52,976 bases of DNA from a phage. Under the pieces are notes generated by a model. That model saw nothing but the letters and a program-made list of their open reading frames with translations. It did no database searches and had not been told where the DNA came from. Position 1 is the stretch's first letter, and each line of letters starts with the position of its first letter. Position numbers and translations under genes: made by a program. The stretch lies in sequence record PZ049337.1; one strand, given 5' to 3'. Shown here piece after piece: positions 8,595 through 39,088 of the stretch.

Positions 8595-8804
8595 TCACTG
8601 TCGGGTAAGTTGAGAACACTTTTGTGCCCACGTTTCGTTGTGGACTAAAATCTGTGTTTTGGTTTCGCGTGATAAGATTTTAACTTCTGCAACATCCAAA
8701 TAGATTGGTTGTGCAATTAAGCAATAATCACTTACGAACCCACTTTGAGAGCAACTCACTATCGACATTGCTATCAGAACTGCTAGACACTTCTTTCTGA
8801 ACAT
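8595..8804 (-). CDS. outer-membrane lipoprotein, o-spanin (Rz1)-like
   Basis: Lipoprotein signal MFRKKCLAVLIAMSIVS|C with lipobox IVSC; start embedded out of frame in the 3' end of ORF 8728..8964. Confidence 0.45.
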   Translation of the reverse strand: MFRKKCLAVLIAMSIVSCSQSGFVSDYCLIAQPIYLDVAEVKILSRETKTQILVHNETWAQKCSQLTRQ

Positions 8805-8964
8805 GCGATTTAATCTCGATAGATTCTTTTAATGAATCCAGTTGCTTCTCTTTGGCTTCCTGACGCTCCTCGGCTTTGCCTGAGCTTTTGCCTTTGAGGA
8901 ACACTGCAATGAGAATGCCCAATGCAGTCAAGACGCCAAGAAATATTGACTTAAGCTGTTGCAT
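8728..8964 (-). CDS. inner-membrane spanin (Rz)-like protein
   Basis: 78 aa; N-terminal transmembrane helix IFLGVLTALGILIAVFL followed by charged coiled-coil-like segment; overlaps the lipoprotein ORF. Confidence 0.45.
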   Translation of the reverse strand: MQQLKSIFLGVLTALGILIAVFLKGKSSGKAEERQEAKEKQLDSLKESIEIKSHVQKEVSSSSDSNVDSELLSKWVRK

Positions 8965-8972
8965 GAATCACC

Positions 8973-9113: not shown

Positions 9114-9140
9114 GAGGACTCCATGTTATTGTTGAAAGTG

Positions 9141-9235
9141 GGTGGACGAGGTTGGATTCGAACCAACGACACATCTGTCGAACAGATTGCTCTACCTGAC
9201 TAAGCTCTGGAGCAGACCTTCTGAGCTACTCGTCC
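9141..9235 (-). tRNA. tRNA-like gene with expanded D-arm; possible tRNA-Arg(UCG), isotype very uncertain
   Basis: Minus-strand read GGACGAG-TA-GCTCAG...GGTAGAGC...ATCTGTTCGACAGAT...GTTGG-TTCGAAT-CCAAC-CTCGTCC-A: perfect 7-bp acceptor stem, canonical T-arm, classic D-arm halves, but about 22 extra nt inside the D-loop; CCA not encoded. Confidence 0.4.
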
Positions 9236-10393
9236 AAAATTGGGTGGGTTTTGGTAACGCAGGTTTTCCCGAACTGCGAGGCTTGTAGAATCTGTGAGTC
9301 ATCTACTGTGTTTTGACATAACGTGGGATTGATGGTCCCGACTCACTTCATCTCAGGTACAAGGCACTACTTTGCGAGTGCAAGCAGGTGTTGAACCCAA
9401 GTACCAACAGGCAACCTGATTTAATCTACCTTTGTAGATACCATCGGTTATGAGCAGTTTATTTCCATGCTCAGGGCAACTCACTTTAGGGTGAATTAGG
9501 TTACGCAGTGCAGCTTCGAAGTCGCTGCCACAGGTTTGAGATTCCTGTGTGGAGGGAAATCCAGAGGAGCACTTCCCCAAGGAGTTACGTTTCAAATTGG
9601 CATAGCTTCTCACACTAAGCCAATTGAAGACATTCCAGTGTGCTCGTCCGTCCTCTAGAAATATCCAACTGCATAATTAAGTTTGTACTCTGTCACATCT
9701 CCACGCGCACTGGAAGACTTAAGCCTGCATTGCATCGCAGAATACAAATTAATTATTGCTCCGATTTATTAATCACATCTCGAAGCCACAATGCGCCAAA
9801 TTTGGTTACATGGGATTGGAAGACCACGGAGAGAACTTAAATTTAATTAAGCTGCAACTCGCATTTCAGAATCATTTGCATTTATTTTAAATGAATAAAA
9901 CAGTCGCAATAACTTCAGGCAGTTTAGACCCGTCGTAAGACTCAGAAAACTACTTCAATATGGACTCTGGCATTCAACCAGACTCGACTACTTTTCAAGG
10001 CACTACCCTCTACTTTTTCATCACCCGTACTGGATATACTTTCACTGGTGCCCTTCCGCAAAGATTTCTTAAAGCGTTTCCAGGATGTTTCGCGGTAGTG
10101 AATCGCTACTACTTCCAGGGTCTCCACCAATACTTTCTAGTGAGCACGTCCTTCCAGCTAATTGTCTTCTCTTATCGGAGAAGGGTTCGTCCATTGCACA
10201 TCCATATTGAAATAACTTCAATGAACACTCTTGTCTGGGCCATGAGCTTGGGCATCGGCCTACCTCCCAACTCTAATCACAAGAATGCTCATTGAAGCCC
10301 ACTCACTCTGGAATGGGTTCAAGGCAGCACCGGAAAACTTCCAGTGCATGCCAGATCGATTTAGCTTAGTCTCTCAAGTTTGCCATCGGCAAC

Positions 10394-10732
10394 TTAGAAT
10401 ACCGGAGCTTCTTCAACAGCAGCTTCGGCAGCTTCTTCAACAACTGCGTCAGCAACTTTAGCTTCTTTCGGGGTATCGAACTTAGTACGCTCAACTTCCG
10501 GCTCACCAGCTTCAACCCACGGCAGATAGAATGCCAGGAACTGCTCGACGGTGTTCTTCTGCATGGAGCGAGAACGGTCGATAGCGCCAACGGTGTTCAG
10601 GTACGCTTCGGCAGCTTTCTCAATTTTAGCACCGTTTTCCAGTTTGAAGTCATGTGCATTACACTCTGCTTCGGTCAGGAACAGGGAACCATCGTTAGCT
10701 TCGTACTGAGTTACGGTTACAATCTTAGCCAT
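10394..10732 (-). CDS. hypothetical acidic protein with C-terminal ...EEAPVF tail
   Basis: Track ORF 10394..10816; I prefer ATG at 10732 (MAKIVTV...) with AGG Shine-Dalgarno, because the recurring 17-nt motif lies in the upstream extension. Confidence 0.5.
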   Translation of the reverse strand: MAKIVTVTQYEANDGSLFLTEAECNAHDFKLENGAKIEKAAEAYLNTVGAIDRSRSMQKNTVEQFLAFYLPWVEAGEPEVERTKFDTPKEAKVADAVVEEAAEAAVEEAPVF

Positions 10733-10810
10733 TTGTATATACCTTATATTGAATAGTTTTTGCACGCCACGGTGACGCGACTTAGATAAAATTAAAGAGC
10801 CTTTCTCTTT

Positions 10811-10827
10811 CCACATCCAATTAATGT
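10811..10827 (-). promoter_or_regulatory. copy of recurring 17-nt motif (minus strand ACATTAATTGGATGTGG)
   Basis: About 80 nt upstream of ATG 10732. Confidence 0.35.
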
Positions 10828-10856
10828 GTCAGGACTGCTCTGATTTAACAAACAAC

Positions 10857-11531
10857 TCAATACATATTGAATCGTTCGATTGTTTTGATTACCAAATCCT
10901 TTGTCTCAGCGACAGTGAGTTCAGTGATGATTGATTCGTCATAACCCTCAATCTGGATTGCTACAAAACGCCCAACACCTGTTACGGTAAGTCGGTTGGT
11001 TCTGTCACGAACAACTACACCAGCTTCTTGCGCGACTGCTCGCAACAATTTCCAGCGTAAAGTTCGGTTTGGTACAGTAAAGCCCTTTGTCAAGAACAAC
11101 TCTTTCATGAGTTCTCCAAGGCAAACAGCTTCAATGTTTTTTCCTCTTCCAACTAATTCTTGCAACAGGCACAGCGTCAACATTTCTAAATTGTTGAAGT
11201 GACCAGCGCGCTCCAAATTAAAGAACTCTGGAGGAACAGTTGAACGAGATTTAACAGCTTGCTTATATGCACGTTCTTCTTCCTGTGCAGCAAGCATTAG
11301 CATCTCTGGCTTAATGTATTTCATAGCAGAGAAGCCAGCGCGTGTGGCTTTAATTATGCGACAAGCCTCTTTCATCTTGTAGCGTTGCCACTCACCGCGC
11401 TTCGATTCTGGATTAAAATGGACCCACATAATGATAACATCTTCCTTGGCAAGATAGACGGCATCATTATCATTGAGCCATTGCTTGCACGTTGATAGTG
11501 CAATCTCTTTGTCATCATCATGATAAGACAT
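10857..11531 (-). CDS. hypothetical protein (about 224 aa)
   Basis: Track ORF 10857..11588; ATG at 11531 (MSYHDDD...) has AGG Shine-Dalgarno and sits 1 nt after the upstream stop. Confidence 0.45.
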   Translation of the reverse strand: MSYHDDDKEIALSTCKQWLNDNDAVYLAKEDVIIMWVHFNPESKRGEWQRYKMKEACRIIKATRAGFSAMKYIKPEMLMLAAQEEERAYKQAVKSRSTVPPEFFNLERAGHFNNLEMLTLCLLQELVGRGKNIEAVCLGELMKELFLTKGFTVPNRTLRWKLLRAVAQEAGVVVRDRTNRLTVTGVGRFVAIQIEGYDESIITELTVAETKDLVIKTIERFNMY

Positions 11532-11532
11532 T

Positions 11533-11823
11533 TTAGTGGCCTTGTAGGATACGTTTGTTCGCAGTTTCTGCGTCGATTCCCAAATCAACTAATGTAACCA
11601 AGCACTGCGAAATCCGCTCTTGCGCAGCTTTCTCCAGAATTTGGTATTTTTCGTCGTTAACGCCTAACACATTCTTGGCATGAATGAGTGTAGCCATTAG
11701 GCCATGACCCAAAGCAACAGCTTGCATTGCCTGGAGTTCGAAGTTGATTGTGATGCCAGCAAGTTCGTGCTCTTTCTGGATAATCTCAATCAACTCTTCT
11801 TTGGATTTGTCTTGTAAGTTCAA
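11533..11823 (-). CDS. hypothetical protein (96 aa)
   Basis: Minus-strand ORF, 4-nt overlap with the upstream gene. Confidence 0.45.
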   Translation of the reverse strand: MNLQDKSKEELIEIIQKEHELAGITINFELQAMQAVALGHGLMATLIHAKNVLGVNDEKYQILEKAAQERISQCLVTLVDLGIDAETANKRILQGH

Positions 11824-12140
11824 AATGGGACTCCGTAAATTGGTTGGTTAGTTGTCCACTCGCGAGTTGCGATTTGCATGGACTTGTTTGGGCCGTGGTA
11901 GAAGTATTTCTTGACTTCCTCAAGTGTGTATTTAGCACTGCTTTCGAGAATATCTTTGAAAGTGTGCTTCCAGAACCCATCTTTCTCCGAAATTCCTACG
12001 GTAAAGTCGTTGGTGCCGTTGTACCACCAACGTCCACCAACCAGGACGAAGTGGATTGTTTCTTCCCCATCTTCCCCACTTAGAACAGACGTTAGTACAT
12101 TTCTTAATGTCAAAACTTTAGCAGAATGCTTGCGAATCAT
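11820..12140 (-). CDS. hypothetical protein (106 aa) ending ...GVPF
   Basis: ATG at 12140 with GGAGAG Shine-Dalgarno; C-terminal VPF tip. Confidence 0.5.
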   Translation of the reverse strand: MIRKHSAKVLTLRNVLTSVLSGEDGEETIHFVLVGGRWWYNGTNDFTVGISEKDGFWKHTFKDILESSAKYTLEEVKKYFYHGPNKSMQIATREWTTNQPIYGVPF

Positions 12141-12783
12141 AGGAACTCTCCAATTTTCGATTCAGTGTTTGTGACTTCTCTCTTCTCATCTTTTGGCCTC
12201 ATGAAACAGGCCACAGGGTTGCGAAAATAGCCCTATTTTAGGACTATAGCCAACCGTTTGTGTCAATTCTGGATAACTGCATTGGTGAAGGGTTACTCTC
12301 GTTAGGGTGCGATACGCTAATCACATGAGTGTCGTCGCCTTGCGGCTCAGGCGTGTCACAAAGGCTTTGCAACCCTTCCCAATACATTCACCCAAATCCC
12401 AGCGTTGGCGTAGCTGGTGGCTTGGTTTTGTGCGGATTATGCCACTCTAAGCCCTGTTTGTCCGACTTCCTCGGAGCACCAGCGGCTTGTGGCACAAACC
12501 TATTTTCGAATGACTAACATAAGCATGAGGCACAACCCTCTAATTATTCAGCCCTAACAGCTTGCTTATTTAGTACCAATTCATCCCAATACATCGACCT
12601 ATAACAAGTGAATAGCGTTTCTGCGAAGAAGTATTCTGGCCCTTTGGCCTATGTTAAAAGATAAGTGTATTTGATGGAAACATTCCATCGAAAATAACTT
12701 TGTAGAATGAGTCGAACATTCTCACACGTCTAGCGGCCGCAACGGTCTACCGAGTTACAAAGTTATTATCTGATGTTGTTTCT

Positions 12784-12800
12784 TCAATTCCAACTAATGT
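12784..12800 (-). promoter_or_regulatory. copy of recurring 17-nt motif (minus strand ACATTAGTTGGAATTGA)
   Basis: In ORF-free region 12150-13010. Confidence 0.3.
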
Positions 12801-12864
12801 TTCAGAATTATTCCAATATTCCAAACAAAAAGAATAATAAGAATAAATTAAAATAAATGAAGAA

Positions 12865-12900
12865 AGTGCTTGACACCCATTTGGCGATAAGTGTATAATG
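12865..12900 (+). promoter_or_regulatory. sigma70-type promoter on the plus (antisense) strand
   Basis: TTGACA (12870-12875), 18-nt spacer ending TG, TATAAT (12894-12899): consensus -35, extended -10; points opposite to all genes. Confidence 0.4.
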
Positions 12901-12924
12901 CATTTCTTCCCTAAGAGGTCAGAA

Positions 12925-12941
12925 TCAAATCCCACTAATGC
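12925..12941 (-). promoter_or_regulatory. copy of recurring motif, degenerate (minus strand GCATTAGTGGGATTTGA)
   Basis: Adjacent to hairpin 12949-12995. Confidence 0.25.
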
Positions 12942-13011
12942 TTCAGACGAAGTGCCGAAGGCCAATGCGAGTACAAAACCCGCTTGGCACTTCGAAGAAA
13001 CCCGCCTGGAA

Positions 13012-13248
13012 CTATAGTGCTTTCCAATCTGAATCAAACAGTTTCTTTGGTCTTGAATAAATTATCGAATTAATTCCCAAGAAAGTATGATTTCCATACT
13101 TCTTAACTTCCTGGTAAGCAAAACCATCTACCCAATCTCCGGAGTGGGTTTTAATCTTTGTAGCAAACAGGATTCGATAGTAGTGGCCGCGTGGCTGGTG
13201 GAAGAGTATATCTTCTGGCTTGATTGAGCTAATATTTAAATCACGCAT
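13012..13248 (-). CDS. hypothetical protein (78 aa)
   Basis: Minus-strand ORF, tightly packed early-gene block. Confidence 0.4.
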   Translation of the reverse strand: MRDLNISSIKPEDILFHQPRGHYYRILFATKIKTHSGDWVDGFAYQEVKKYGNHTFLGINSIIYSRPKKLFDSDWKAL

Positions 13249-13789
13249 TTAAGAACAATACTCCTTCGGAGAAGATGTAGTCGCTTCCATAATCTTTTGC
13301 AACTGCATCCCAATCAATGTATGGACGAAGATGGTCTGGAACTTCTATCCCATCATAGTTTTTGAAGTAGTCTGCAATTGAGTCGCAACGAGTGATGAAC
13401 ATGTCATTCAAATCATTCACAGTGAAAATATCAATCTCACCACTACGGAATGCAGCAAGAATTACAAACAAATCAGTGTCATTTAAAAGTTCATTGAATT
13501 TGTCATACTTGCGTAGGCTGAACAGGCCATCAACAAAGCAAACTTCCGTAACATCCTCATCTCTTGATTCGAGAATGTCGTAAGTCCCTGTTTCTGGGTA
13601 CTCGATACCATATTCTTCGTGTAAATATTCTGACATGTTGAAGTCATAGAGCCGCCACGCCAGACCATCAATCCAAGCATCTTCATGCTCGGAATTGTTT
13701 TCGCCTGTGTAGAAACGAACCAATAAGGTTTCATCTCTACGCCAGGACTTAAGCTGTGATACTGCTTGAGTAATGTTATCGTTTTGCAT
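13241..13789 (-). CDS. ArdA-like antirestriction protein (DNA mimic)
   Basis: 182 aa, strongly acidic; C-terminal PYIDWDAVAKDYGSDYIFSEGVLF resembles my recollection of the ArdA C-terminal motif (YIDYQAYGRDL...GIFEI). Confidence 0.45.
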   Translation of the reverse strand: MQNDNITQAVSQLKSWRRDETLLVRFYTGENNSEHEDAWIDGLAWRLYDFNMSEYLHEEYGIEYPETGTYDILESRDEDVTEVCFVDGLFSLRKYDKFNELLNDTDLFVILAAFRSGEIDIFTVNDLNDMFITRCDSIADYFKNYDGIEVPDHLRPYIDWDAVAKDYGSDYIFSEGVLFLNA

Positions 13790-14066
13790 TTAGTTTCTCC
13801 CAAGTGCCTCTCAATTCTGTGTCCAGAATCTTAAGTTGATTGATTCGCTCATTTCCACCTTTGATAAGTGCACTGAGGATAGCAACCTTCTCGTTGTAAC
13901 TGACAGTGTAGACTACATCGTCAAGTTCCATAGTGTACTGCATCTTCTTTTCATCACCTACGTTAATTGATAGGTGCTGGTGGAGAATATTCTCTGCACG
14001 GATGGTTCTTGACTCTAGTGCATTCAACTCTCTTGGAATATCTTCGTAATTCATCGGATGCTCCAT
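13776..14066 (-). CDS. hypothetical protein (96 aa)
   Basis: Minus-strand ORF. Confidence 0.4.
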   Translation of the reverse strand: MEHPMNYEDIPRELNALESRTIRAENILHQHLSINVGDEKKMQYTMELDDVVYTVSYNEKVAILSALIKGGNERINQLKILDTELRGTWEKLNAKR

Positions 14067-14074
14067 TGATGAAG

Positions 14075-14470
14075 TTATGCTGGAAGTTCGAAGTGTGGTG
14101 CGTCTAGGAATTTAGCCCATTTCACCGGCTTAGTGAATGAACGCTCCCATGTTCCGCCCCAACGAATGACAATTCCAAGCTCTTCTGCGGCTTTGAACAT
14201 GTGTTCAGCTACAATTTGGAATCGTTCGAGGTCATTCCAGTCAATTGGATATGGTGCAATGTCCAAAGCGTTGCCTGACATGTGTCGGCTAACTGAAACT
14301 TTGGTTGCACCCTGTTTTAACAGCTCTTGTTGACGTTCATAAGAGCGTAAACCTTCCAAAACAGTTACATCAAAAGGCATGGTTTCACATGCCCGTTTGA
14401 AAACTGCAACTAATGAAGGATTTACTCCCTTAAGTCGGTCTAAAGAACGCTGACCGAGCTTAACATTCAT
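14075..14470 (-). CDS. peptidoglycan L-alanyl-D-glutamate peptidase, M15 family (T5-type endolysin)
   Basis: 131 aa; SRHMSGNALDIAPY...IDWNDLERF...ELGIVIRWGGTW...DAPHFE gives the H-x6-D...H zinc-binding pattern; no signal peptide. Confidence 0.7.
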   Translation of the reverse strand: MNVKLGQRSLDRLKGVNPSLVAVFKRACETMPFDVTVLEGLRSYERQQELLKQGATKVSVSRHMSGNALDIAPYPIDWNDLERFQIVAEHMFKAAEELGIVIRWGGTWERSFTKPVKWAKFLDAPHFELPA

Positions 14471-14745
14471 TATTTACCCTTTAATGCGTCGTTTAAGGTG
14501 TTGTTTAACAACGTGTTGAGGTTATTAAGCTCGTCAAATGCTACCTGAGCTTTGTTAACTTCGTCAACAAGCAATGCCCGAAGGACTGCATGCTCAACAA
14601 GCACCCATCCGTCGATACAGTCGATGAAAACTTTGACTTTATCAACTGGAGCGTTTAAATCAAAGGCTGACAAGTCGGATTTGGCATTGTCCAACTTACC
14701 TTTTGCCTTGCTTAGTTCAACTGGAACTTGGTCTATCGAAATCAT
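14470..14745 (-). CDS. hypothetical protein (91 aa)
   Basis: Minus-strand ORF. Confidence 0.4.
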   Translation of the reverse strand: MISIDQVPVELSKAKGKLDNAKSDLSAFDLNAPVDKVKVFIDCIDGWVLVEHAVLRALLVDEVNKAQVAFDELNNLNTLLNNTLNDALKGK

Positions 14746-14975
14746 TGAAATTTATTCCCACTAGGGTGAATGGTTAATTTGAAAGGCACTAATTCTTTAT
14801 TGATTGAGGTTGTTCCAAGAACTGTTGCCTCAAACAGCATAGATTTAGCTGTTTCCTTACCAACACGTTCCAAGTATTTTACAACTCGGTCGTGAATTAC
14901 TGCCCAATGGCGATATTCGCAATCGGATTCCAGCAGGTATTGAACTCCATCAATGATAAATTCGGTTGAAGTCAT
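14742..14975 (-). CDS. hypothetical protein (77 aa)
   Basis: Minus-strand ORF. Confidence 0.4.
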   Translation of the reverse strand: MTSTEFIIDGVQYLLESDCEYRHWAVIHDRVVKYLERVGKETAKSMLFEATVLGTTSINKELVPFKLTIHPSGNKFQ

Positions 14976-15331
14976 TTCTTCTCCGTACAGCTGGTGGATA
15001 AAACAGGATAGTTTGCTTTGAGGAAATCTCCATCACGGAAAATCTGAAGTACAAGTTTGTCTTCATGATTTATAAACAGTGCAGCAAACCTGCTATCTTT
15101 AATGTTGTAAAACAAAACTGTTGCAGGATTTGGTTCATCGCTTGGAACCTCCATCCAAACACCAGCTTCAGGAATTATTGACGCAATCAGAGGTTGGCTG
15201 TCTCCAATATTATCAATTACAAGAGCATACGCTCCGCATTTGAAGTTCTTTGTTGACGCTTTGGACTCAAAGCTGAAGAACGCCAAAACAATTAATGCTA
15301 AAGTATAAATGATGATGTACTTAAGTTTCAT
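14972..15331 (-). CDS. secreted/periplasmic hypothetical protein
   Basis: N-terminal signal-peptide-like MKLKYIIIYTLALIVLAFFSFESKAS. Confidence 0.45.
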   Translation of the reverse strand: MKLKYIIIYTLALIVLAFFSFESKASTKNFKCGAYALVIDNIGDSQPLIASIIPEAGVWMEVPSDEPNPATVLFYNIKDSRFAALFINHEDKLVLQIFRDGDFLKANYPVLSTSCTEKK

Positions 15332-15383
15332 AATTCCTCCAATAATTAATCGAGGCCACTCGAAGTGGAATGGCCTCTGTTAA

Positions 15384-16088
15384 TTACAGCTTCTTGATAA
15401 GCTCTGCGGATTTGCTTGCAGCAACTTTCATTTCATCGCGTGCGGCTTTGGTGATTGATGCCTTATCCACGCGAATGTTACAGTTGCCGATTGCAATCTT
15501 GCCATCTTCTGTTGGTGCAAGTTGCTGTAAGTCGAGCATTTGCTCCAGCTTTTGCAGAAGAATACGTTGTGCTTCGATTGCATTTTGAATATTTAAAGTT
15601 TCCATTACTGCTCTTACCTTTCTTGAATAAGTTTCAAATAATGATAGGCGCACTTGCAAACCTTTTACGCCATCACAGTCAAAATTGACTTTGTTGAATG
15701 GTGAATTTGGATGCTTATATACATTTGTAACAGTTTTCCAATTACCCTTATGCAAGATAACATCACCAACTTCCACATCAGCGCCTTTAACATCCTCTTC
15801 ATCTGAGAATGGTTTCACTGCTTCACCATAAGGGAGAAACACTGGTGTTATCTGTGTGCTGAATGTCGCTGTTGGAGTCCCCAAAGCTGGTGGCCTGTCG
15901 AGCACTTTGACTATGCGGCCAAATTCAAAATTGTAGTACCCACCAGAATATTGCAACTGAACTGCATCACTAAACCGGAGGATGTTTTCAATCCGGTATT
16001 CCCTGTTGCCGTAAACCAATACATCACCAGGCTTTACCAAATTGGCAGGTATTTCGACAAATTTAGTTCCCATTATGGTATTCCTCAC
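15384..16088 (-). CDS. hypothetical protein (about 230 aa)
   Basis: Largest early-region ORF; no motif recognised. Confidence 0.45.
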   Translation of the reverse strand: MRNTIMGTKFVEIPANLVKPGDVLVYGNREYRIENILRFSDAVQLQYSGGYYNFEFGRIVKVLDRPPALGTPTATFSTQITPVFLPYGEAVKPFSDEEDVKGADVEVGDVILHKGNWKTVTNVYKHPNSPFNKVNFDCDGVKGLQVRLSLFETYSRKVRAVMETLNIQNAIEAQRILLQKLEQMLDLQQLAPTEDGKIAIGNCNIRVDKASITKAARDEMKVAASKSAELIKKL

Positions 16089-16197
16089 GCATTGCTGAAC
16101 AGTGCTTACACACCCAAAAGGTTACATAATCGTTTTCATGTGAAATTTCCCAATTATGTAGCCCTATAAAACATAAAATTTTCATAGGGCATCCCAA

Positions 16198-16551
16198 TTA
16201 GAATGGAATATCGTCGTCGAAGTCTTTCGGCTCGTTCGGATTGTAATTGCTCTGCTGTTGCTGAGCAGAAGGTTGCTGACGTTGCTGTCGCTGTTGAGCA
16301 GCGGCTTGAGGTTGAGCTTTGGCTTTAGCTTTCTCTTCACGCTTACGCATCATTTCATCAACCTGTTCTTGGGTCATGATGGTCAATGCAAGTGAGGTAA
16401 ATTCATTACCATTTGCTTGCTTGTTCCAGCCAGATACCCAATACCAGATTCCGTCAACGTTAATACGTCCACGAACGTCGGGATGTTTTGGGTCTTTCTT
16501 GAAGCCATTGGAACCGATGATGCCAGTGTTTACGTCTGAATATTGTGCCAT
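16198..16551 (-). CDS. small protein carrying a host-SSB-like C-terminal tip (DFDDDIPF)
   Basis: 117 aa; ATG at 16551 with Shine-Dalgarno; Gln/Ala-rich linker then NEPKDFDDDIPF, matching the E. coli SSB tip as I recall it; N-terminal domain about 70 aa, too short for a canonical OB fold. Confidence 0.55.
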   Translation of the reverse strand: MAQYSDVNTGIIGSNGFKKDPKHPDVRGRINVDGIWYWVSGWNKQANGNEFTSLALTIMTQEQVDEMMRKREEKAKAKAQPQAAAQQRQQRQQPSAQQQQSNYNPNEPKDFDDDIPF

Positions 16552-16623
16552 GATTAAGATTCTCTTAAGTTAATTACAGTTTAAGTTTCAGTGACATTGC
16601 TAACCACGGAATAGCTTTGTCTC

Positions 16624-16640
16624 TCACATCCAACTAATGT
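16624..16640 (-). promoter_or_regulatory. copy of recurring 17-nt motif (minus strand ACATTAGTTGGATGTGA)
   Basis: 73 nt upstream of ATG 16551; identical 17-mer at 20704-20720. Confidence 0.4.
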
Positions 16641-16680
16641 TGAATTAATCAGGAACACTCAATGAATGCTCCTTGTTAAT

Positions 16681-16968
16681 TTACATCGACTTGGAAATAG
16701 GAATCGGGTCAATGTTTGATTCAGGTTTATACCAGCTTACTTCACCAGAATCTTTCACAAGCTCCCACAAATTGGAGAATGTACGATAGAGTAGAACTTT
16801 GTTATCATCAATAACGACAAAACCCAAAGGAGATTGAATATACGCACCCAATGTACCACTGTTTCGAGGAACTCCGTCACCACGACCTGCGACGATTTTG
16901 TACTTCTTGCCTTTGGTGAAGCTGGAATTAGTTTCACCAACATATTTAACGATTGAATTCTTGTTCAT
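16681..16968 (-). CDS. hypothetical protein (95 aa)
   Basis: Minus-strand ORF. Confidence 0.4.
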   Translation of the reverse strand: MNKNSIVKYVGETNSSFTKGKKYKIVAGRGDGVPRNSGTLGAYIQSPLGFVVIDDNKVLLYRTFSNLWELVKDSGEVSWYKPESNIDPIPISKSM

Positions 16969-17198
16969 TGCTTTAGTTTCTCCAAAGCGGATAATACGGA
17001 ATCACCAGAACCACTAATTACAAGCGTTTCCCCTGGAAGATTGTAGGATATATAAGAGAACGTCCATTTTACAACAGTTCTCTGATATGAGGAGCTGTAT
17101 TTATCAGACAGCTCTATATCTTGCCTTGCATCGTTTAGTAAGAACTCCTGCCCATCAATAGTCAGTTGCTTAAACATTTCGATATGACTCTTACCCAC
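16965..17198 (-). CDS. hypothetical protein (77 aa)
   Basis: Minus-strand ORF. Confidence 0.4.
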   Translation of the reverse strand: MGKSHIEMFKQLTIDGQEFLLNDARQDIELSDKYSSSYQRTVVKWTFSYISYNLPGETLVISGSGDSVLSALEKLKQ

Positions 17199-17481
17199 GC
17201 TTCACCTTCTCCCATTTAGATAAACCACCCTCAAGACTGAATACGCGGTTACAACCAGATTCATCTTTAATGACGAATTGAGTTCCGGTTAACTGAACTG
17301 GCTCAAGTGCACCAAACAACACTTTAGGTTTTGACAAGCTGGTGGCAAGAACTTTGTATGCTTTGCTTGGGCAAATGTCAAAAGCAAAGTCACGAGTGTA
17401 AACTAAGTCACCAACCTTCAAATATGCTGGTAACAAGCGACCTGTGGCTGGGTCACGTTGTAAACGAGTACGTTGTTTCAT
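17191..17481 (-). CDS. hypothetical protein (96 aa)
   Basis: Minus-strand ORF. Confidence 0.4.
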   Translation of the reverse strand: MKQRTRLQRDPATGRLLPAYLKVGDLVYTRDFAFDICPSKAYKVLATSLSKPKVLFGALEPVQLTGTQFVIKDESGCNRVFSLEGGLSKWEKVKRG

Positions 17482-17544
17482 AAATGCTCCAAGTTAATTA
17501 ATAATATTCAGCAACCACTCTCATTATGAGAATGGTTGAGGAAA

Positions 17545-17796
17545 TTATTTAACTTCTTCCCAGGACCAGACACTGCCTTTTAGCGGAACGCTTTCACCAG
17601 CATTCCAGTAAGGTTTTCCATCAACATCCTTGTGGTCACTATCTTTCAAAAGGTTTATGCGAGCTTCCACACCGTATTCTCGCTGAACATGTACAAGTTC
17701 TCCCTCAAGCACGACACCAACCTGCGGAGAATACTCCCCAGAAGATGTTGATTTTACACATTTAAACTTTGTCATTGTAATACACCTTGTTCGCAA
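17545..17796 (-). CDS. hypothetical protein (83 aa), tandem paralog of 17772..17999
   Basis: Shares N-terminal M(T)KFKCV.S...VG...EGE.V pattern with the neighbour. Confidence 0.4.
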   Translation of the reverse strand: MRTRCITMTKFKCVKSTSSGEYSPQVGVVLEGELVHVQREYGVEARINLLKDSDHKDVDGKPYWNAGESVPLKGSVWSWEEVK

Positions 17797-17999
17797 ATAT
17801 CTGCAAACTCTGCACGATGGTCACGCTGCCATGTCCAGAATGCACCATTCATAGGAACAACAGCGCCTTTACGAAATGCTGGAGAAATACTCTCAGCAGA
17901 TTTGGTAACTTTAAATTCTAAAGGTGAAACAGCTTCACCCTCGATGATTAGGCCAACTGGGACGTAGTCTTTGTTGGAAGCAACACATTTAAATTTCAT
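17772..17999 (-). CDS. hypothetical protein (75 aa), tandem paralog of 17545..17796
   Basis: MKFKCVASNKDYVPVGLIIEGEAV... Confidence 0.4.
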   Translation of the reverse strand: MKFKCVASNKDYVPVGLIIEGEAVSPLEFKVTKSAESISPAFRKGAVVPMNGAFWTWQRDHRAEFADICEQGVLQ

Positions 18000-18001
18000 G
18001 G

Positions 18002-18184
18002 TTATCCTCTTGGTGGAATATTTCCACTATTATCTATAAGTTTACCGCGATAAATATTTAAACCACAATCTGCACAGAATGCGTTATCCAGAACTACGGG
18101 ACCATACATTCCCACAGCTTCATGAGCCACATGGTCTACATTATTGCTGCCACACTTTGGGCAAACAACATCATCCTCATTCAT
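18002..18184 (-). CDS. zinc-ribbon small protein
   Basis: CPKCGS...CADCG double CxxC. Confidence 0.4.
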   Translation of the reverse strand: MNEDDVVCPKCGSNNVDHVAHEAVGMYGPVVLDNAFCADCGLNIYRGKLIDNSGNIPPRG

Positions 18185-18488
18185 GGTATAAAACTCCCAA
18201 TTCAGATTCTAATTTAAATTCACGGAAGAAATCCATTGTTACAAATCGGACTTTACCTTCGTCATCAACTACGTTACAGGAAATGTCGGAGTGGACCATC
18301 CTGCCTAGCTTCAGAGCAACTTCTGAAAGATTCGCTTCGCCAGTCCCTGAGATTACACGGTAGATGCGATACGGTGTAAAGCCGCTTAAAGAGTTATTAC
18401 GGCTTGGGACAATCATCATGCCTGTTCTAGTAGCCATAATAACTCCAATATTAAAAGTACATGAATGCGCCAATAGTAAGTAGCACAA
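18177..18488 (-). CDS. hypothetical protein (103 aa)
   Basis: Minus-strand ORF. Confidence 0.4.
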   Translation of the reverse strand: MCYLLLAHSCTFNIGVIMATRTGMMIVPSRNNSLSGFTPYRIYRVISGTGEANLSEVALKLGRMVHSDISCNVVDDEGKVRFVTMDFFREFKLESELGVLYHE

Positions 18489-18709
18489 GTGGAAACATCA
18501 GAATGCAGAATACTAATTTCTTAACAATGTCCATTATTTCACCAGGAAGTAGAGAACAATAGCAACACCAACACATGCAATGATTGTTGGCATATAATTA
18601 TCAATTTTACGATATTGACGTTCGACTGGCTTCTTGCCTTTAATAGCATCCATCAATTCTTGATGATTAATCTGCTGCATGAATGTGTTAAATTGCTGGT
18701 CGTTCATTA

Positions 18710-18958
18710 TCACATACCTTTGTAGGACATAAAGTTGTTAATCAAACTGTCCATGATTCGGTCAGTCATAACATCTTTATTGAATTGTCTTTTTGTGATT
18801 TCGATGCCGAAATCGTTTTTAACTTCCTTAACTACATCACTTACTGGAAGGTGTATCCAATTATTAAAGTTGACAACAAGACGCTCCTGGATGAACTCAA
18901 TCTTTTCTTCATAAGAGGCCAACTCGATTAAGTCAGCCTTCAATTTAAACTGTGTCAT
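18710..18958 (-). CDS. hypothetical protein (82 aa)
   Basis: Minus-strand ORF. Confidence 0.4.
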   Translation of the reverse strand: MTQFKLKADLIELASYEEKIEFIQERLVVNFNNWIHLPVSDVVKEVKNDFGIEITKRQFNKDVMTDRIMDSLINNFMSYKGM

Positions 18959-19143
18959 TTAGCCTCCAGAATTTGGCTTAATGAACTGAACACGATTTCC
19001 TCATGTTCATCAGGTGTACATGCGTTGATGTATTCAAAGTCATACCCAACAAACTTCTCCGCCCACTCCTGTAAACGAAGTAAAGAATTGAAGTACAAAC
19101 GTTGCTCTACGCCATTTAACTTAAAGTAGACGATGAAGTCCAT
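18955..19143 (-). CDS. hypothetical protein (62 aa)
   Basis: Minus-strand ORF. Confidence 0.35.
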   Translation of the reverse strand: MDFIVYFKLNGVEQRLYFNSLLRLQEWAEKFVGYDFEYINACTPDEHEEIVFSSLSQILEAK

Positions 19144-19145
19144 GA

Positions 19146-19448
19146 TTAACCTCTTACTTTCAGGAAATCTGGATGTGCGGCAGTTGCCACAACTTTGTGA
19201 TGTTTGTCATTCTGGATTGCTTGCCAAACATATTCAGGATATGCGGCATTATTCCACACCAGCTTGTTTTCGTAAATTGATGTATAAGATATTAAGTCTG
19301 CCAACATTATTGCTCTGGTTTTAGTATTAACCAAAGCATGAGAAACAACACCATCACGATTGATATATTGATACAGTGCGTAATCCATTTCAGAATCCTT
19401 TAGTGTACCCAACAGTTTTGCGCAGAATGATTTCATCATTTGAATCAT
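19146..19448 (-). CDS. hypothetical protein (100 aa)
   Basis: Minus-strand ORF. Confidence 0.4.
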   Translation of the reverse strand: MIQMMKSFCAKLLGTLKDSEMDYALYQYINRDGVVSHALVNTKTRAIMLADLISYTSIYENKLVWNNAAYPEYVWQAIQNDKHHKVVATAAHPDFLKVRG

Positions 19449-19832: not shown

Positions 19833-19849
19833 CACATGCAACTAATGAT
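19833..19849 (-). promoter_or_regulatory. copy of recurring motif (minus strand TCATTAGTTGCATGTGA)
   Basis: 195 nt upstream of gene start 19638. Confidence 0.3.
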
Positions 19850-24673: not shown

Positions 24674-25234
24674 TTATTTATTTCCTAAATACTTATAAAA
24701 TTTATGTCCACCACAGGCTCCTCTTCCAACAACTCTTTTGAAATTACATTTCTCTGTAGCTGTGCAGAAGTGGGTGGCATCGGTTACATCTGGAGCATCC
24801 AACAATGCGAAGTTAATTGCTACATTCATGGTGTCCCAAACCTGTTTTGATTCAGTCTTCCAATTTGTTTTAACTATATTCTTCCATTGAGCATTCTTCT
24901 TCTTTGCTTCTCTTGTCCAAGCAAACTGGTTGCGTTGATATACTACATCGCAAACGGTGTTAGCGAATGGCTTCCCGAATTTGATTCGATTACGGACGAC
25001 ATTAGCTACCAGAATCTTTCCATGCTTGCTTTCTCCACGAGCCTCAAACCAAATTACTTTGGCATAGCATTCTATATCTTTGCGTTGAGAAATAGATAGT
25101 TTCGGATTTCCATTTAAATAAGATTGACTTGCAAATTCTGTAATAGTGGCGTTCACTGCCCCAGCCGAAGCTGGGACATTTGCGTGAAACAGACTCACCA
25201 ACAGAAATGCAAGAACTTGTGCTGAGGGCATCAT
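24674..25234 (-). CDS. secreted SleB-like cell-wall hydrolase (candidate endolysin)
   Basis: N-terminal signal/SAR-like [26 protein letters not shown]; [24 protein letters not shown] resembles Hydrolase_2/SleB; adjacent to holin. Confidence 0.55.
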
Positions 25235-25249: not shown

Positions 25250-25591
25250 TTATTTGGCCTTCTTAAACCAATTGAGTGGGTTGAGTTGTTTGATTGCAGC
25301 AGTGAAGCAATCTCGAATTGTGGTAATGATTAGGTTAGCCCCAATCAAACCAATCACCATTGCGGCGATTGTGGCATAGCGCGGTTCATTTTTGAATATG
25401 TCTACGAAGCCTGGGAGGGAGAAAACGAACGTACCAATAACCACACAAAGCAGGGCATCAAAAATAGCTTTCAGCAAGCCTTCCTTTTCATATGCCCCAC
25501 GAATGAGTGCAGTCAATCCAGCAAGAAGTCCATGCAGGACTCCATACTGGTGCATTGCTTCCCATACCATCTGGAAAGTTTGTCTATCCAT
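25250..25591 (-). CDS. holin (three predicted transmembrane helices)
   Basis: 113 aa; hydrophobic segments YGVLHGLLAGLTALI, LLCVVIGTFVFSLPGFV, ATIAAMVIGLIGANLIITTI; charged C-terminus; next to the hydrolase. Confidence 0.6.
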   Translation of the reverse strand: MDRQTFQMVWEAMHQYGVLHGLLAGLTALIRGAYEKEGLLKAIFDALLCVVIGTFVFSLPGFVDIFKNEPRYATIAAMVIGLIGANLIITTIRDCFTAAIKQLNPLNWFKKAK

Positions 25592-35398: not shown

Positions 35399-38300
35399 TT
35401 ATCTACGTTCCATTGCACCATTACCCATGTTGATTGTTTGGGTAACAGTTTGACCGTTCGGAGTTGACACGGTTGCAGACGCTTGCTTGTTGTTCACAGT
35501 AGCTTTGACTTCAACGTTAACTACAGTAGCCTGTGTCTGACCATAAGATAGTCCATTTCTGGTGAAGCCGGTTGCACCTTCTGCAATAGAATCGCCCTGA
35601 GAAGCCCATTCGCGGTACTTCTTGACGCGGTTCTGTGCCTGTAGAGGAACAGCATTGAGCCAGTCGGTTCCGTGTTTGTTGATAGCATCATCAACAGTTC
35701 CAGCACCATCCGTATACGCCGCCATAGCCTTCTCAGCGTCACCATTATAACGCTTGAGCATTGCATCATAGTAGTCACGACCAACGCGAGCACGTTCTTC
35801 CAGTGAGTTATCACGGGCAGGTTTAACGCCGAATCCTGGGTCACGGGAAGTTGAATCAAGAACCTGCATACGACCTTTGGCACCAGTCGGAGATGTAACC
35901 ACCGAACCATCTGCGTTCAAATCGCGGTTCCCTGACTCTTCTCCTGCGATAAAGTCGTAAACATTACGTGCTGCATCGGCTGCACCGTTGGAGGTCATAC
36001 GCATCACTCTGGCTGCGTCACCGCCTGCCTCAATAAAGGTGCTGCCGTATGAGATTGCAGCTTGCGGAACAGCGTAACCAGGCAATACCCCAGCACGCTC
36101 CGTCTGCGCAATTCCTAGCTGTGCAACGCCTTCGGCATAGTTTGAGTCAGCCCCACGCTGAACGTTCGCCTCAGCCTCGCCCATGCTGTATTCTGTGCGG
36201 TCATAGGCACGAGCCATACCGTCCAGTCCAGCCATTTGCATAGCACCAGCGATACGCGCCTGACTCCAGCCTCGTTCCTGACCACGTTCGCGCATTACCC
36301 GCGCTAAGGCTACAGGGTCGCCCTGTGCCTGCCTAATGTCGCCAATGGTGATAAGACCACGGGTTCCCTGAACAATGCTCACAGCGCCGCTGGGGTCGCC
36401 ATTTAGGAGGGTGTTATAGGCACTATGTGTGGTTTGATTCAGTCGGCTGGCTTGCTGGGAATTAAGTCCTAACATCTCCATGCCCTGAGTCATGGAAGAG
36501 TATTCGTTAGGGTTATTTACACCAGCATCTAACGAGTTTCCGTAGAAGTCATTCAGACCTTCCAGAGCTTCGTTGCCAATTTGGGTAGCACCAATAGCCA
36601 TACCAGCGACACGACCCCACGGAGTCATCATCATGGCATTCATTGCACCAGTGGATAAAGAGCCAATACTGCCGCCAGCTACGCCAGCAGCTAATGCCCC
36701 ACCCATACGACCGAAGTCATCACCAAAACTGCCACCAGCTTGCCACCCACGACGTCCACCACCGCCACCAGAACCACCACCGCTAATACCATAGCTACTA
36801 GCATCAATGTTGTCCCAGAAGCCGCCTGAGCGCCCACCGTCGCCACCACCGAAATCTGCATCCTGACCACGGAGCTTGTTCTCTTCCTGTGCTGCGAGGA
36901 TACCTTTCTTAACTGACACAGCCATCAGGTCATTGCCAGTTGTGCTATCAGCGCCCACAGCAGAGGCTGTAGCAGCACCAATTCCAGCATCGGTACGGTT
37001 TCTTAAGAACGGGTCATCATCAGTGCCAGCAGCAGCACTGTATCTTGCCATTCCACGCTTGCCAGCCGTGTATCCTTCGCCTTCCCTGTGGTCACGAGTC
37101 TGGTATCCCCAGATGCCACCACCAGACATAACTTCACGAGTTGCATTAATAAGGTCTTTGCCTTCAAGGTCAGAGCTTTCCATAAACTCACGACCAGCAT
37201 TCATGCGTGCTTGTGAAGATGCAATCTTATTCTTGTTACGTTCGAACCACGTTGGGTCAGCATCAACCCACTGGCTACGAGATTCTTCGCCAACAGTTTG
37301 AGTAAATAGGGTACGACTACGACCACTCAAATGCATACCAAGTTGCATCTGGTCCATGTAGTTCGGAGTAGATTCCAAATCTTTAAAGTCGTTTGGAGCC
37401 TTATGTTCCCACAGAGCATCATCACCAATTAATCCATCTGGCGAGTACATCATGCCAGGATAGTTATCGTTAGTGATTGCACCAGTTTCTGTTATCTCAA
37501 CCCCATACTTCTCGCCAACTCTCGGCCTGGCCCATGCCTCTAATCTGTGACCACGCTCAAAGTTCTCACGCGCTCGTGGAGAATCCTTTCTTACTGTGAG
37601 GCCAATCTTCTCGCCCATTGTATGTATTGGACTATTATTGGTTGCGGGGTTGTGGCCCAGATAATCACCAATAGTAGAGCCAGTAATATCGTACTGCTTA
37701 CGAAAATCAAGCCACTCCTGCGTACCTTGTTCGAGCGCATTGTGGTATTTAACCGAACTAGGCTGTCCAGCACCAGCACTATCGAGATTTGCAATAGCAA
37801 TAGCTTCTCTTCTATCCCTTGCAGAATTCCAACTTGTCGGTTCATTCAGATTTGCCGTAAACTCTCTGGATGTACTAAGTTCAGTAGGTCCAGTATTTCT
37901 TAAACGTTCAGCAGGGTCGAAAGTTCTGCTTACTTCTGCTTCATTATATTGGTGGGCATTCTCAAGTACACCACGAATAGATGCACCAGAGTAACGAGGG
38001 TCATCACCAATATCTTTCTTGAGGTTGTCATAACCAGAACGAGCATCTGCAAGGTCTATATAACGAGATGCAGAATCAAGAATTAAATCTCGGTCAGAAG
38101 ATTGAGTGCGATAAGCATTCATCCCTCGTTCTGAGCCACCAGCATATACCTGAGCAGCAGATTTAACTACGCCAGATACATCTTGATATAAAGATTTACT
38201 TGCATCAGACCAACCTGGAGAGCCAGATAGTGATGCAGATAAAGAGTATTCAGCCTTAATGCCAGAACCCATAGAGCCTAGAGGTAGGCCAGATGCGTTA

Positions 38301-39088
38301 AGAGGTTGGCGAGGATGTTGAATATCACCAACAATAGACTCGGAACCAAGTTGAGGAAGAGAATCCATGTATGAAACTCTTGGCCCCGACTTATTACCTA
38401 CATTCATTGCAGATACGGCAGCAACTTCACGGAAGTTTTGCGGCAATTCTGATTCTAAACGTTTGGCTACACGATAAACATCTCGTGCATAGCGGTCTGG
38501 GTCGTCATATTGTTGACGGTCAACATACATATGAGCTAGGTAGCCCATAGATTTGGCAATATCTCCACGGTTTGTGGAATATTCACCCATAATATCGCCA
38601 GTGTAATGCCCAGGAAGTTCCGGCATTATATCTTGATGACCTGCCAGCGTATCACGCATGTACGCATTAAGCATTCCCCAATGGCCTTCTGGCTTGTTTG
38701 TGTTTGCTTTAGGCATGTGCATCCACACATCATCGGTGGATACACCTAATTTCTCCATGTAGGCATGAACAGCTTCTACATGGTGACTTGGACCGTTCAT
38801 TGCAGCATGGAATGTTTCAGTCAGCCCAGCACCAGAAATCATCTGTGCAATGTGAGCTGAATCTGAAATCATGTCGGAAGTACCATAAGAGATGCCATCA
38901 TCTTCTGTGTAGGTTTCTTCCATAAGCTGTGAATTTGTTTCCATCCAACCAGAGGCAGCACTTGATTCAAGTTGCTGTGCCATATCTCGTTTGCGCATAC
39001 CTGGATTGAATGACAGACCATATTGAGCGCCTAAGCCAATCAATTCGGCTTCGGACATTCTCATCAAATCTTTTATGTTATTAGCCAT
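35399..39088 (-). CDS. tail tape measure protein with lytic transglycosylase (SLT) domain
   Basis: 1229 aa; long Gly-rich tract; SLT-like AGEESGNRDLNADGSVVTSPTGAKGRMQV and following YYDAMLKRYNG...AYTDGAG. Confidence 0.75.
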   Translation of the reverse strand: MANNIKDLMRMSEAELIGLGAQYGLSFNPGMRKRDMAQQLESSAASGWMETNSQLMEETYTEDDGISYGTSDMISDSAHIAQMISGAGLTETFHAAMNGPSHHVEAVHAYMEKLGVSTDDVWMHMPKANTNKPEGHWGMLNAYMRDTLAGHQDIMPELPGHYTGDIMGEYSTNRGDIAKSMGYLAHMYVDRQQYDDPDRYARDVYRVAKRLESELPQNFREVAAVSAMNVGNKSGPRVSYMDSLPQLGSESIVGDIQHPRQPLNASGLPLGSMGSGIKAEYSLSASLSGSPGWSDASKSLYQDVSGVVKSAAQVYAGGSERGMNAYRTQSSDRDLILDSASRYIDLADARSGYDNLKKDIGDDPRYSGASIRGVLENAHQYNEAEVSRTFDPAERLRNTGPTELSTSREFTANLNEPTSWNSARDRREAIAIANLDSAGAGQPSSVKYHNALEQGTQEWLDFRKQYDITGSTIGDYLGHNPATNNSPIHTMGEKIGLTVRKDSPRARENFERGHRLEAWARPRVGEKYGVEITETGAITNDNYPGMMYSPDGLIGDDALWEHKAPNDFKDLESTPNYMDQMQLGMHLSGRSRTLFTQTVGEESRSQWVDADPTWFERNKNKIASSQARMNAGREFMESSDLEGKDLINATREVMSGGGIWGYQTRDHREGEGYTAGKRGMARYSAAAGTDDDPFLRNRTDAGIGAATASAVGADSTTGNDLMAVSVKKGILAAQEENKLRGQDADFGGGDGGRSGGFWDNIDASSYGISGGGSGGGGGRRGWQAGGSFGDDFGRMGGALAAGVAGGSIGSLSTGAMNAMMMTPWGRVAGMAIGATQIGNEALEGLNDFYGNSLDAGVNNPNEYSSMTQGMEMLGLNSQQASRLNQTTHSAYNTLLNGDPSGAVSIVQGTRGLITIGDIRQAQGDPVALARVMRERGQERGWSQARIAGAMQMAGLDGMARAYDRTEYSMGEAEANVQRGADSNYAEGVAQLGIAQTERAGVLPGYAVPQAAISYGSTFIEAGGDAARVMRMTSNGAADAARNVYDFIAGEESGNRDLNADGSVVTSPTGAKGRMQVLDSTSRDPGFGVKPARDNSLEERARVGRDYYDAMLKRYNGDAEKAMAAYTDGAGTVDDAINKHGTDWLNAVPLQAQNRVKKYREWASQGDSIAEGATGFTRNGLSYGQTQATVVNVEVKATVNNKQASATVSTPNGQTVTQTINMGNGAMERR

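Follow-up and report, generated by a model that had tools for sequence, protein, structure and literature searches.

Phage T5 and its relatives carry two peptidoglycan hydrolases of unrelated families, an M15 peptidase and a SleB-like enzyme, and a 2024 paper on T5-like phages notes this pair while leaving open which of the two is used for lysis (PMC11180984). The same two families occur together in the phage DNA analyzed here, sequence record PZ049337.1, a stretch of 52,976 nucleotides that is referred to below as the window. Its M15 gene (14075-14470) encodes a predicted L-alanyl-D-glutamate peptidase that lacks an export signal, its SleB-like gene (24674-25234) lies beside a holin gene, and its tape measure protein carries a family 1 lytic transglycosylase (SLT) domain. 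The reading preferred here, on which our judgment is evenly balanced, is that the SleB-like enzyme and the M15 peptidase may act together as a two-enzyme lysis system and that the tape-measure SLT domain may serve as the entry enzyme.

The tape measure protein of T5, pb2, is muralytic. At the level of the proteins, the window resembles the T5 group closely. Its M15 protein is 36-50% identical to T5-group M15 proteins, and its SleB-like protein has the core C...FE(A/S)RGE...C-x-VVYQ-x-NQF-x-W in common with the T5-group SleB-like proteins, which likewise start with a signal peptide. The arrangement of the genes, however, is reversed. In T5 the M15 gene is located beside the holin and the SleB-like gene elsewhere, whereas in the window it is the SleB-like gene that is located beside the holin. 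The holins also differ, as that of the T5-like phage AKFV33 has been described as larger and with a single transmembrane segment, while the window holin is a lambda-S-type protein with three. Another described system is that of Pectobacterium phage CB7 (Certrevirus, Vequintavirinae), in which the SleB-like protein CB7_83 has a signal peptide and was reported as toxic upon expression; its gene overlaps that of a class II holin candidate. What CB7 and the window have in common is a SleB-like enzyme with an export signal, encoded next to a holin candidate, together with a signal-less T5-type peptidase (CB7_190) encoded elsewhere and spanins at a third place. CB7 nevertheless belongs to an unrelated lineage with a genome of ~140-150 kilobases (kb), and other members of its group swap the M15 enzyme for a lysozyme-like one. 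In Stenotrophomonas phage Mendera, a SleB-like 'endolysin' follows the tail fiber genes. In the 90-kb Proteus phage Privateer, no SleB-like gene was seen next to the M15 endolysin within the 5.5 kb examined.

Phage T7 encodes a class II lysozyme/amidase (gp3.5), a late holin (gp17.5), spanins (gp18.5/18.7), and an internal virion protein with an SLT domain (gp16). As in T7, the window encodes a single-subunit RNA polymerase, its lysis genes are scattered, a peptide-side wall enzyme is encoded among DNA-metabolism genes, and an SLT domain is delivered by a large virion protein. Unlike in T7, the peptide-side enzyme is an M15 peptidase and not an RNA-polymerase-binding Amidase_2 protein, an exported SleB-like enzyme is present in addition, and the SLT domain is located on a myovirus tape measure protein. 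Regulation of the RNA polymerase by the M15 protein in the manner of gp3.5 was considered and is unlikely, since sister genera fill the same slot with M15_3 or CHAP proteins. A paper on the endolysin of Pantoea phage PA1 was set aside as a precedent (69-kb genome, genes on both strands, lysozyme-type enzyme).

The SleB-like enzyme itself invites comparison with two further groups. Signal-anchor-release (SAR) endolysins such as P1 Lyz and R21 of phage 21 are likewise encoded beside a holin and start with a hydrophobic export sequence. A SAR segment is a weakly hydrophobic, Gly/Ala/Ser-rich transmembrane segment of ~16-22 residues without a signal peptidase site. The window protein differs in having a Leu/Phe/Val-rich core of 10-13 residues, after which come a conserved Pro and the type of small-x-small site that is typical for signal peptidase I, in its SleB-like rather than T4-lysozyme-like catalytic fold, and in its partner, a three-segment lambda S holin in place of the usual pinholin. 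P1 Lyz works with a canonical holin, so the absence of a pinholin is not decisive. With the Bacillus enzymes SleB and CwlJ, the window protein shares the fold of the catalytic domain (4FET, 4F55) and the catalytic Glu motif. It is only 21-22% identical to them, however, has a signal peptide in place of the peptidoglycan-binding domain, and has two invariant cysteines. The substrate determinant of SleB is muramic-delta-lactam, of which the host has none. The features that enter the comparison are the following:

14075..14470, minus strand: signal-less M15 (LAS-type, T5-like) L-alanyl-D-glutamate peptidase, 131 residues, assigned from a complete open reading frame with Pfam, PHROG, and PDB matches
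24674..25234, minus strand: predicted lytic transglycosylase, SleB-like (Hydrolase_2), 186 residues, export signal at the N-terminus, assigned from a complete open reading frame, Pfam, and AlphaFold/Foldseek
25157..25234, minus strand: predicted export signal of the SleB-like protein, residues 1-26, assigned from Kyte-Doolittle values and alignment
25250..25591, minus strand: class I holin of the lambda S family with three predicted transmembrane segments, assigned from Phage_holin_3_1 and PHROG 126
8728..8964, minus strand: i-spanin, 78 residues, a transmembrane segment at the N-terminus and then a charged helical region, assigned from PHROG 1026 (Rz-like spanin, 1.2e-19)
8595..8804, minus strand: o-spanin, 69 residues, lipoprotein signal MFRKKCLAVLIAMSIVSC, assigned from a lipobox scan and PHROG 1275 (Rz-like spanin, 1.1e-17)
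35399..39088, minus strand: tape measure protein, 1229 residues, assigned from its position and PHROG 19855 (virion structural protein)
35660..35998, minus strand: SLT (family 1 lytic transglycosylase) domain at the C-terminal end of the tape measure protein, residues ~1031-1143, assigned from Pfam SLT and PHROG 1044

All long open reading frames of the window are on the minus strand. A megablast search with positions 13000-26000 matched 65 phage records, the best of them at 87-92% nucleotide identity (Carltongylesvirus genomes), and by these matches the window is the genome of a phiEcoM-GJ1-like coliphage (Chaseviridae, Carltongylesvirus). Its 52,976 bases fit the 52-56 kb given for Chaseviridae, and it is therefore essentially a complete genome. 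No tRNA genes were found in it. Read in the direction of transcription, the RNA polymerase gene comes first, followed by many small genes, ssb, the M15 peptidase gene, ArdA, the spanins, and the replication genes; then come the packaging, head, and tail genes, the tail fibers, the holin, the SleB-like gene, and nrdB. The lysis genes thus lie at three places in the genome, and scattered lysis genes are also found in T4 and T7.

The M15 gene is located between ssb and ArdA, among other small open reading frames, and its start overlaps the stop of the small frame upstream. The placement of this gene among early genes, claimed in a sequence-only reading of the window, holds as far as its position goes; the early class is positional only. 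The protein matches Pfam Peptidase_M15_4 at 36.9 bits (cutoff 25; E 5.6e-9) and PHROG 465, 'endolysin' (E 7.6e-55). Among solved structures it matches the L-Ala-D-Glu peptidases 23ri (4.3e-24), 8q2g (1.1e-23), and EndoT5 2mxz (1.2e-19), as well as ChiX (5opz), with E-values ranging from 4e-24 to 5e-18. The zinc-binding and catalytic motifs are intact: H63-MSGNAL-D70 (H-x6-D) and D123-A-P-H126 (D-x-x-H), the latter aligning with the C-terminal motif of 23ri. The predicted specificity of the enzyme is for the L-Ala-D-Glu bond in the stem peptide. No hydrophobic segment was found in the protein, in which a 15-residue Kyte-Doolittle average peaks at 0.74, and its description as lacking a signal peptide stands. 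The gene is not adjacent to the holin as it is in T5, the holin gene (25250-25591) being ~11 kb away. Such adjacency is a habit of endolysin genes and not a requirement.

The SleB-like gene is located directly downstream of the holin gene and directly upstream of nrdB. Only 15 bases, with AAGGAA among them, separate the holin stop from the SleB-like start. The protein matches Pfam Hydrolase_2 at 57.3 bits (cutoff 27; E 2.6e-15). Aligned across 32 homologues, the protein shows an invariant E64-A-R-G-E68 motif, which aligns to the ESRGE catalytic region of SleB; E64, G67, E68, C56, and C95 are all invariant. The AlphaFold model (pLDDT, a per-residue confidence measure, 85.8) was compared to solved structures with Foldseek. 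It matched only the SleB catalytic domains 4FET/4F55 (probability 1.00, TM score 0.72-0.74 normalized to the target); no other solved fold was found at E<=1, the next match having an E-value of 2.4. C56 and C95 are absent from Bacillus SleB and would fit a periplasmic disulfide. Since the domain scores all lie above the curated cutoffs, the enzyme identifications are no chance matches. The window does encode two unrelated hydrolases in separate modules, as had been proposed, in two exact minus-strand reading frames (Peptidase_M15_4 and Hydrolase_2), and the residues checked for catalytic death in either enzyme (H63/D70/D123/H126 and E64/E68) look intact.

The start of the SleB-like protein had been described as signal- or SAR-like. 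Its export character holds up well, while the evidence leans away from a SAR segment. The N-terminal hydrophobic stretch covers residues 6-27, with the Kyte-Doolittle peak at residues 1-8, and its uninterrupted core is 10 residues long (V7-F16). Across the 32 homologues, the core spans 10-13 residues rich in Leu/Phe/Val; a conserved A-P-A-S-x-G-A comes after it, Pro being conserved at -4 or -6 and the residues at -3 and -1 being small. Homologues at a greater distance carry textbook Sec signals, for example MRKLLLLILLLTVVPASAG (positive start, Leu-rich core, small-x-small site), and the SleB-like proteins of Nefertitivirinae and of the T5 group also begin with Sec-type signals. In the AlphaFold model, the signal region forms only a 10-residue helix of low confidence. 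Nothing but the signal sequence and a short helix precedes the catalytic domain, an N-terminal peptidoglycan-binding domain being absent. These observations lean toward a cleavable Sec signal peptide rather than a Gly/Ala-rich SAR anchor; both the cleavage and the transglycosylase specificity are predictions. A lipoprotein signal was considered for this protein and rejected, as no Cys is found close to where cleavage is predicted.

The holin neighbor reported earlier is a three-segment Phage_holin_3_1 protein (Pfam 3.2e-9; PHROG 126 holin/anti-holin, 4.4e-19), with hydrophobic segments at residues ~16-34, 37-60, and 71-93. A lambda S-type holin forms large holes and can release a soluble cytoplasmic enzyme. 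The holin start overlaps the stop of the tail fiber assembly gene, and the record of the relative Mangalitsa names the protein 'holin class I'. Met residues are present at positions 1 and 8 (MDRQTFQM...). A dual start giving a holin and an antiholin, as in lambda S, could be possible, yet the extra residues have no net positive charge. Among the spanins, the o-spanin gene overlaps the 3' end of the i-spanin gene by 77 nucleotides in another frame. The o-spanin has the lipobox IVSC and is 51% identical to a PM1 'Rz-like spanin' (tblastn), and the syntenic gene pairs in Myduc and PM1 are annotated as spanins.

The third wall-cutting activity is predicted to reside in the tape measure protein. 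The gene order is sheath, tube, tail assembly chaperone (39257-39715), the 1229-residue protein, and baseplate hub (34226-35332), and the protein is named 'tape measure protein' in Mangalitsa. The SLT domain reported there earlier is borne out by its Pfam score (29 bits, cutoff 21.3; E 8.2e-7) and by readable motifs: E1051-S, GRMQV, and AYTDG, for the family 1 pattern E-S, G-x-M-Q, and A-Y-x-x-G. The domain is kept in the Myduc tape measure protein. In the relative 4HA13, the tape measure ortholog was shown to be abundant in virions, with a mass spectrometry coverage of 64-67% (PMC9699118). Neither small enzyme is among the high-coverage virion proteins of 4HA13, a list limited to at least 50% coverage, which makes their absence weak negative evidence; the non-structural ssb protein does appear on that list (PMC9699118).

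The evidence that the two small enzymes belong together comes from the rest of the family. A search with the RNA polymerase found 109 Chaseviridae records, 81 at >=60% identity (Cleopatravirinae) and 28 at ~33% (Nefertitivirinae). A search with the SleB-like protein found 81 records at E<=1e-20, and their breakdown by host is the same as that of the 81 Cleopatravirinae found through the RNA polymerase. In Nefertitivirinae, diverged signal-bearing Hydrolase_2 proteins are encoded at the end of the late operon in all five genomes checked (BUCT696, pAh6.2TG, Spp001, MSO-5, and VPs20). Each of the five has an M15_3 or M15_4-like peptidase gene as the immediate neighbor of the Hydrolase_2 gene, the order of the two varying. 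BUCT696 and pAh6.2TG, both Pahsextavirus, have different M15 types at one position. The Cleopatravirinae have the signal-less enzyme gene in the ssb/ArdA region, and the type of enzyme varies: M15_4 in ~73 of the 81 records, M15_3 in Myduc (2e-30), and a CHAP-domain protein in PM1 (28.7 bits, cutoff 26). No M15 gene was found in PM1 by tblastn over positions 2200-55098, that is, all but the RNA polymerase gene. Non-orthologous replacement of this kind is typical of endolysin slots. In every genome checked, the signal-less partner is of a type that cuts peptide stems. The pattern, as read from protein families, is one of a constant enzyme predicted to be exported and to cut glycan, and a swappable enzyme predicted to be cytoplasmic and to cut peptide, their genes being adjacent in one subfamily and apart in the other. 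The adjacency in Nefertitivirinae and the swapping of the signal-less partner therefore suggest, as the simplest reading, a shared role in lysis.

The enzyme set itself has already been annotated in phiEcoM-GJ1, ST32, Mangalitsa, and other relatives, and the observation is not new. The M15 protein is 97-99% identical to proteins of phiEcoM-GJ1, Mangalitsa, and MLP1 that are annotated as 'endolysin' or 'L-alanyl-D-glutamate peptidase', the two labels it has among close relatives generally. Public labels of the SleB-like protein are 'endolysin', 'SAR endolysin', 'lytic transglycosylase', and 'spore cortex-lytic enzyme', and the ST32 paper lists both small enzymes as endolysins. The two proteins differ in which relatives match them best. 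The M15 protein reaches 99% identity with those of TH23, PYps3T, MLP1, and Mangalitsa and 81% with that of ST32; the SleB-like protein reaches 99% with its counterparts in TH25 and PYps3T and only 73% with those in GJ1, ST32, and Mangalitsa. Alleles therefore appear to have been exchanged independently at both loci, which have mosaic histories. On the true endolysin, whose identity the earlier reading called unclear, no literature was found that tests which enzyme lyses the cell, and no lysis experiment on any member of Chaseviridae was found, including in the papers on ST32, Mangalitsa, Myduc, Tiny, and 4HA13.

Under the preferred reading of two lysis enzymes and a separate entry enzyme, the C-terminal SLT domain would travel with the virion on the tape measure protein and open the wall locally when DNA is injected. 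The SleB-like transglycosylase would be produced late, from the operon of the tail fiber and holin genes, and exported by Sec, so that it would already be outside the cytoplasm before lysis. The signal-less L-Ala-D-Glu peptidase would build up in the cytoplasm. Holes made by the lambda-S-type class I holin would let the M15 peptidase reach the wall and cut the stem peptides, while the transglycosylase would cut the glycan strands. The overlapping i-/o-spanin pair would then disrupt the outer membrane.

Several points weigh against this reading. No experiment on either enzyme from Chaseviridae was found, and the basis is sequence, synteny, and analogy. The adjacency in Nefertitivirinae concerns diverged M15 types, and one of them, BUCT696 gp68, scores below the Pfam cutoff (23.6 against 25 bits), though both its H-x6-D and its D-x-x-H motif can be read. 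For the Myduc-type and for the PM1-type replacement, a single genome each was checked. A scan of positions 8000-27500 for sigma-70 promoters and terminators gave 29 promoter-like sites, compared to 42.7 expected from shuffled sequence, and so does not define the timing of expression. Cleavage of the signal would leave a free transglycosylase in the periplasm that has to be restrained until the holin acts, and no restraining factor was identified here. In other phages, a SAR-type endolysin on its own next to a holin makes up a complete system. Annotators at the Center for Phage Technology call the SleB-like protein a 'SAR endolysin' and do not call the M15 protein an endolysin. In T5 the accepted endolysin is the M15 enzyme, and by that analogy one of the two enzymes could be dispensable.

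Two readings assign lysis to a single enzyme. In one, the SleB-like protein is the sole true endolysin, SAR-type or secreted and controlled by the holin, and the M15 peptidase of the early/middle region is dispensable for lysis and has another job, such as wall remodeling or acting on cytoplasmic muropeptide precursors. This is unlikely. All Cleopatravirinae keep the classic pairing of holin and endolysin genes where the late operon ends, and the SleB-like enzyme, unlike the M15 type, is present in every family member examined; the signal-less slot, though, always holds a wall peptidase, beside the SleB-like gene in Nefertitivirinae, and this is hard to explain without a role in lysis. The swap between the unrelated M15 and CHAP folds argues for a generic wall-cutting role of that slot. 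The 'SAR endolysin' label used in Mangalitsa, 4HA13, and DE15, with the M15 protein merely a peptidase in Mangalitsa, favors the SleB-like enzyme, as does the toxicity of its CB7 homologue on expression, but its N-terminus is unlike a SAR anchor and a large-hole holin suits a soluble cytoplasmic enzyme.

The other reading makes the M15 peptidase the true endolysin, released by the holin as in T5, and gives the exported SleB-like protein an accessory part in the periplasm that lysis does not require (for example in wall recycling, superinfection effects, or faster clearing in certain conditions). This assignment, which we also doubt, would have to accommodate a Chaseviridae SleB-like gene with close translational coupling to the holin, one more conserved than any other lysis-region gene of the family and encoding an enzyme with its catalytic Glu and fold intact. 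Were the SleB-like gene an accessory one, some lineages would be expected to lack it, but it is present in every genome checked. What speaks for the M15 peptidase is that its homologues are the accepted endolysins of T5, RB43, and RB49 (PDB names and annotations), that a lambda-S-type holin matches a soluble endolysin, that the T5-like phages hold their signal-bearing SleB-like gene in the early region, far from the holin, and that the annotators of MLP1 gave the name 'endolysin' to the M15 protein only.

The earlier suggestion that one of the small enzymes is packaged in the virion for entry or counters a host defense is very improbable: many phages do carry virion-associated wall hydrolases, the M15 gene is located beside the anti-restriction gene ardA, and the coverage limit of the 4HA13 list makes absence from it weak evidence, but the tape-measure SLT domain already supplies an entry enzyme, both small enzymes are missing from that list even though ssb is present, the M15 gene of Nefertitivirinae lies in the lysis cassette and away from ardA, and the partner swapping and the adjacency of the M15 and SleB-like genes indicate lysis. 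For the SleB-like protein, packaging is incompatible with its conserved export signal, because the signal would take the protein out of the cytoplasm, where virions assemble. We know of no defense system that is countered by a wall hydrolase.

Within the preferred two-enzyme reading, a more specific and quite improbable proposal can be made by analogy. Bacillus SleB needs muramic acid residues without a peptide stem. The SleB-like transglycosylase might likewise be a pre-positioned but latent enzyme that acts on glycan strands only after their stems are cut or removed, which would make lysis a matter of two-step licensing. The holin would free the cytoplasmic peptide cutter (M15_4, M15_3, or CHAP, depending on the genus), and the action of this enzyme would create the substrate of the transglycosylase. 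What counts against such licensing is that the CB7 homologue was toxic and that other rV5-like phages have lysozyme-type partners.

Other features of the window were noted alongside the lysis genes:

37319..37717, minus strand: YqaJ / lambda-exonuclease-like domain inside the tape measure protein, residues 458-590, assigned from Pfam YqaJ (7.1e-11)
23553-24671, minus strand: nrdB (ribonucleotide reductase small subunit), final gene of the late operon
14972-15331, minus strand: protein of 119 residues with a signal-peptide-like N-terminus, MKLKYIIIYTLALIVLAFFSFESKA, its sole match a PHROG of unknown function

The YqaJ domain matches the exonuclease structure 3SYY at 2.5e-10, SPDG...EHK being aligned to SPDG...EIK, and its PD-(D/E)xK residues look intact. 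The tape measure proteins of Myduc and the distant BUCT696 contain this domain too. For a tape measure protein, it is unusual to contain a nuclease domain delivered with the virion, and the titles and abstracts of the 14 papers mentioning both terms show no sign of an earlier description. The nrdB start lies 2 bases past the stop codon of the SleB-like gene. No nrdA was seen within the window; in the Nefertitivirinae phage BUCT696, both ribonucleotide reductase subunits are encoded upstream of the terminase gene. The gene at 14972-15331 lies three genes upstream of the M15 peptidase gene in one tightly packed gene string, and a strong hairpin (15352-15377, minus strand) is located ahead of it. 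Among the public records, PP952070.1, 'Staphylococcus phage Pel53' with the stated host Staphylococcus hyicus, has ~88% DNA identity to GJ1-like coliphages. It has the RNA polymerase of this coliphage group (92%), the M15 peptidase, and the SleB-like gene; either its host assignment is probably wrong or the sample was probably contaminated.

A conserved motif with the core ACATTAGTTGGAtGTGAA was also found. As a 12-mer with <=2 mismatches, it occurs 14 times, always on the coding strand, compared to 5.7 occurrences expected on both strands. Its 5' ends on the minus strand are 23074, 20728, 19856, 16648, 12949, 12808, 11167, 10835, 4647, and 2078, with a weak site at 32714. A 32-nucleotide weight matrix gave 11 matches on the coding strand and 0 on the opposite strand. 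Most sites are located just upstream of genes, the RNA polymerase gene and ssb among them, in the early, middle, and replication regions. In relatives, the matrix gave 12/1 matches (coding/other strand) in Mangalitsa, 16/0 in Myduc, and 6/0 in the early region of PM1, and no sites in the Nefertitivirinae phage BUCT696. A literature search for the motif string returned nothing phage-related, and the ICTV profile states that Chaseviridae promoters have not been identified. The motif is a candidate promoter for the phage RNA polymerase.

Phages with several hydrolases are commonplace, and the presence of these enzymes is in itself an ordinary observation; the comparative pattern is of modest interest to specialists in lysis. 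The public label 'SAR endolysin' may be wrong, which matters for enzybiotic cloning, as the mature N-terminus would differ. Two-step licensing, if true, would account for how a phage of a Gram-negative host can export an endolysin with an apparently cleavable signal, having neither a SAR tether nor premature lysis. It would also account for the presence of a peptide-side partner in every Chaseviridae genome checked and for the recurrent pairing of M15 and SleB-like enzymes in T5-like phages and Certrevirus. For Chaseviridae, as for T5-like and rV5-like phages, the pattern raises two questions: why are two enzymes kept, and what restrains the one that is exported?

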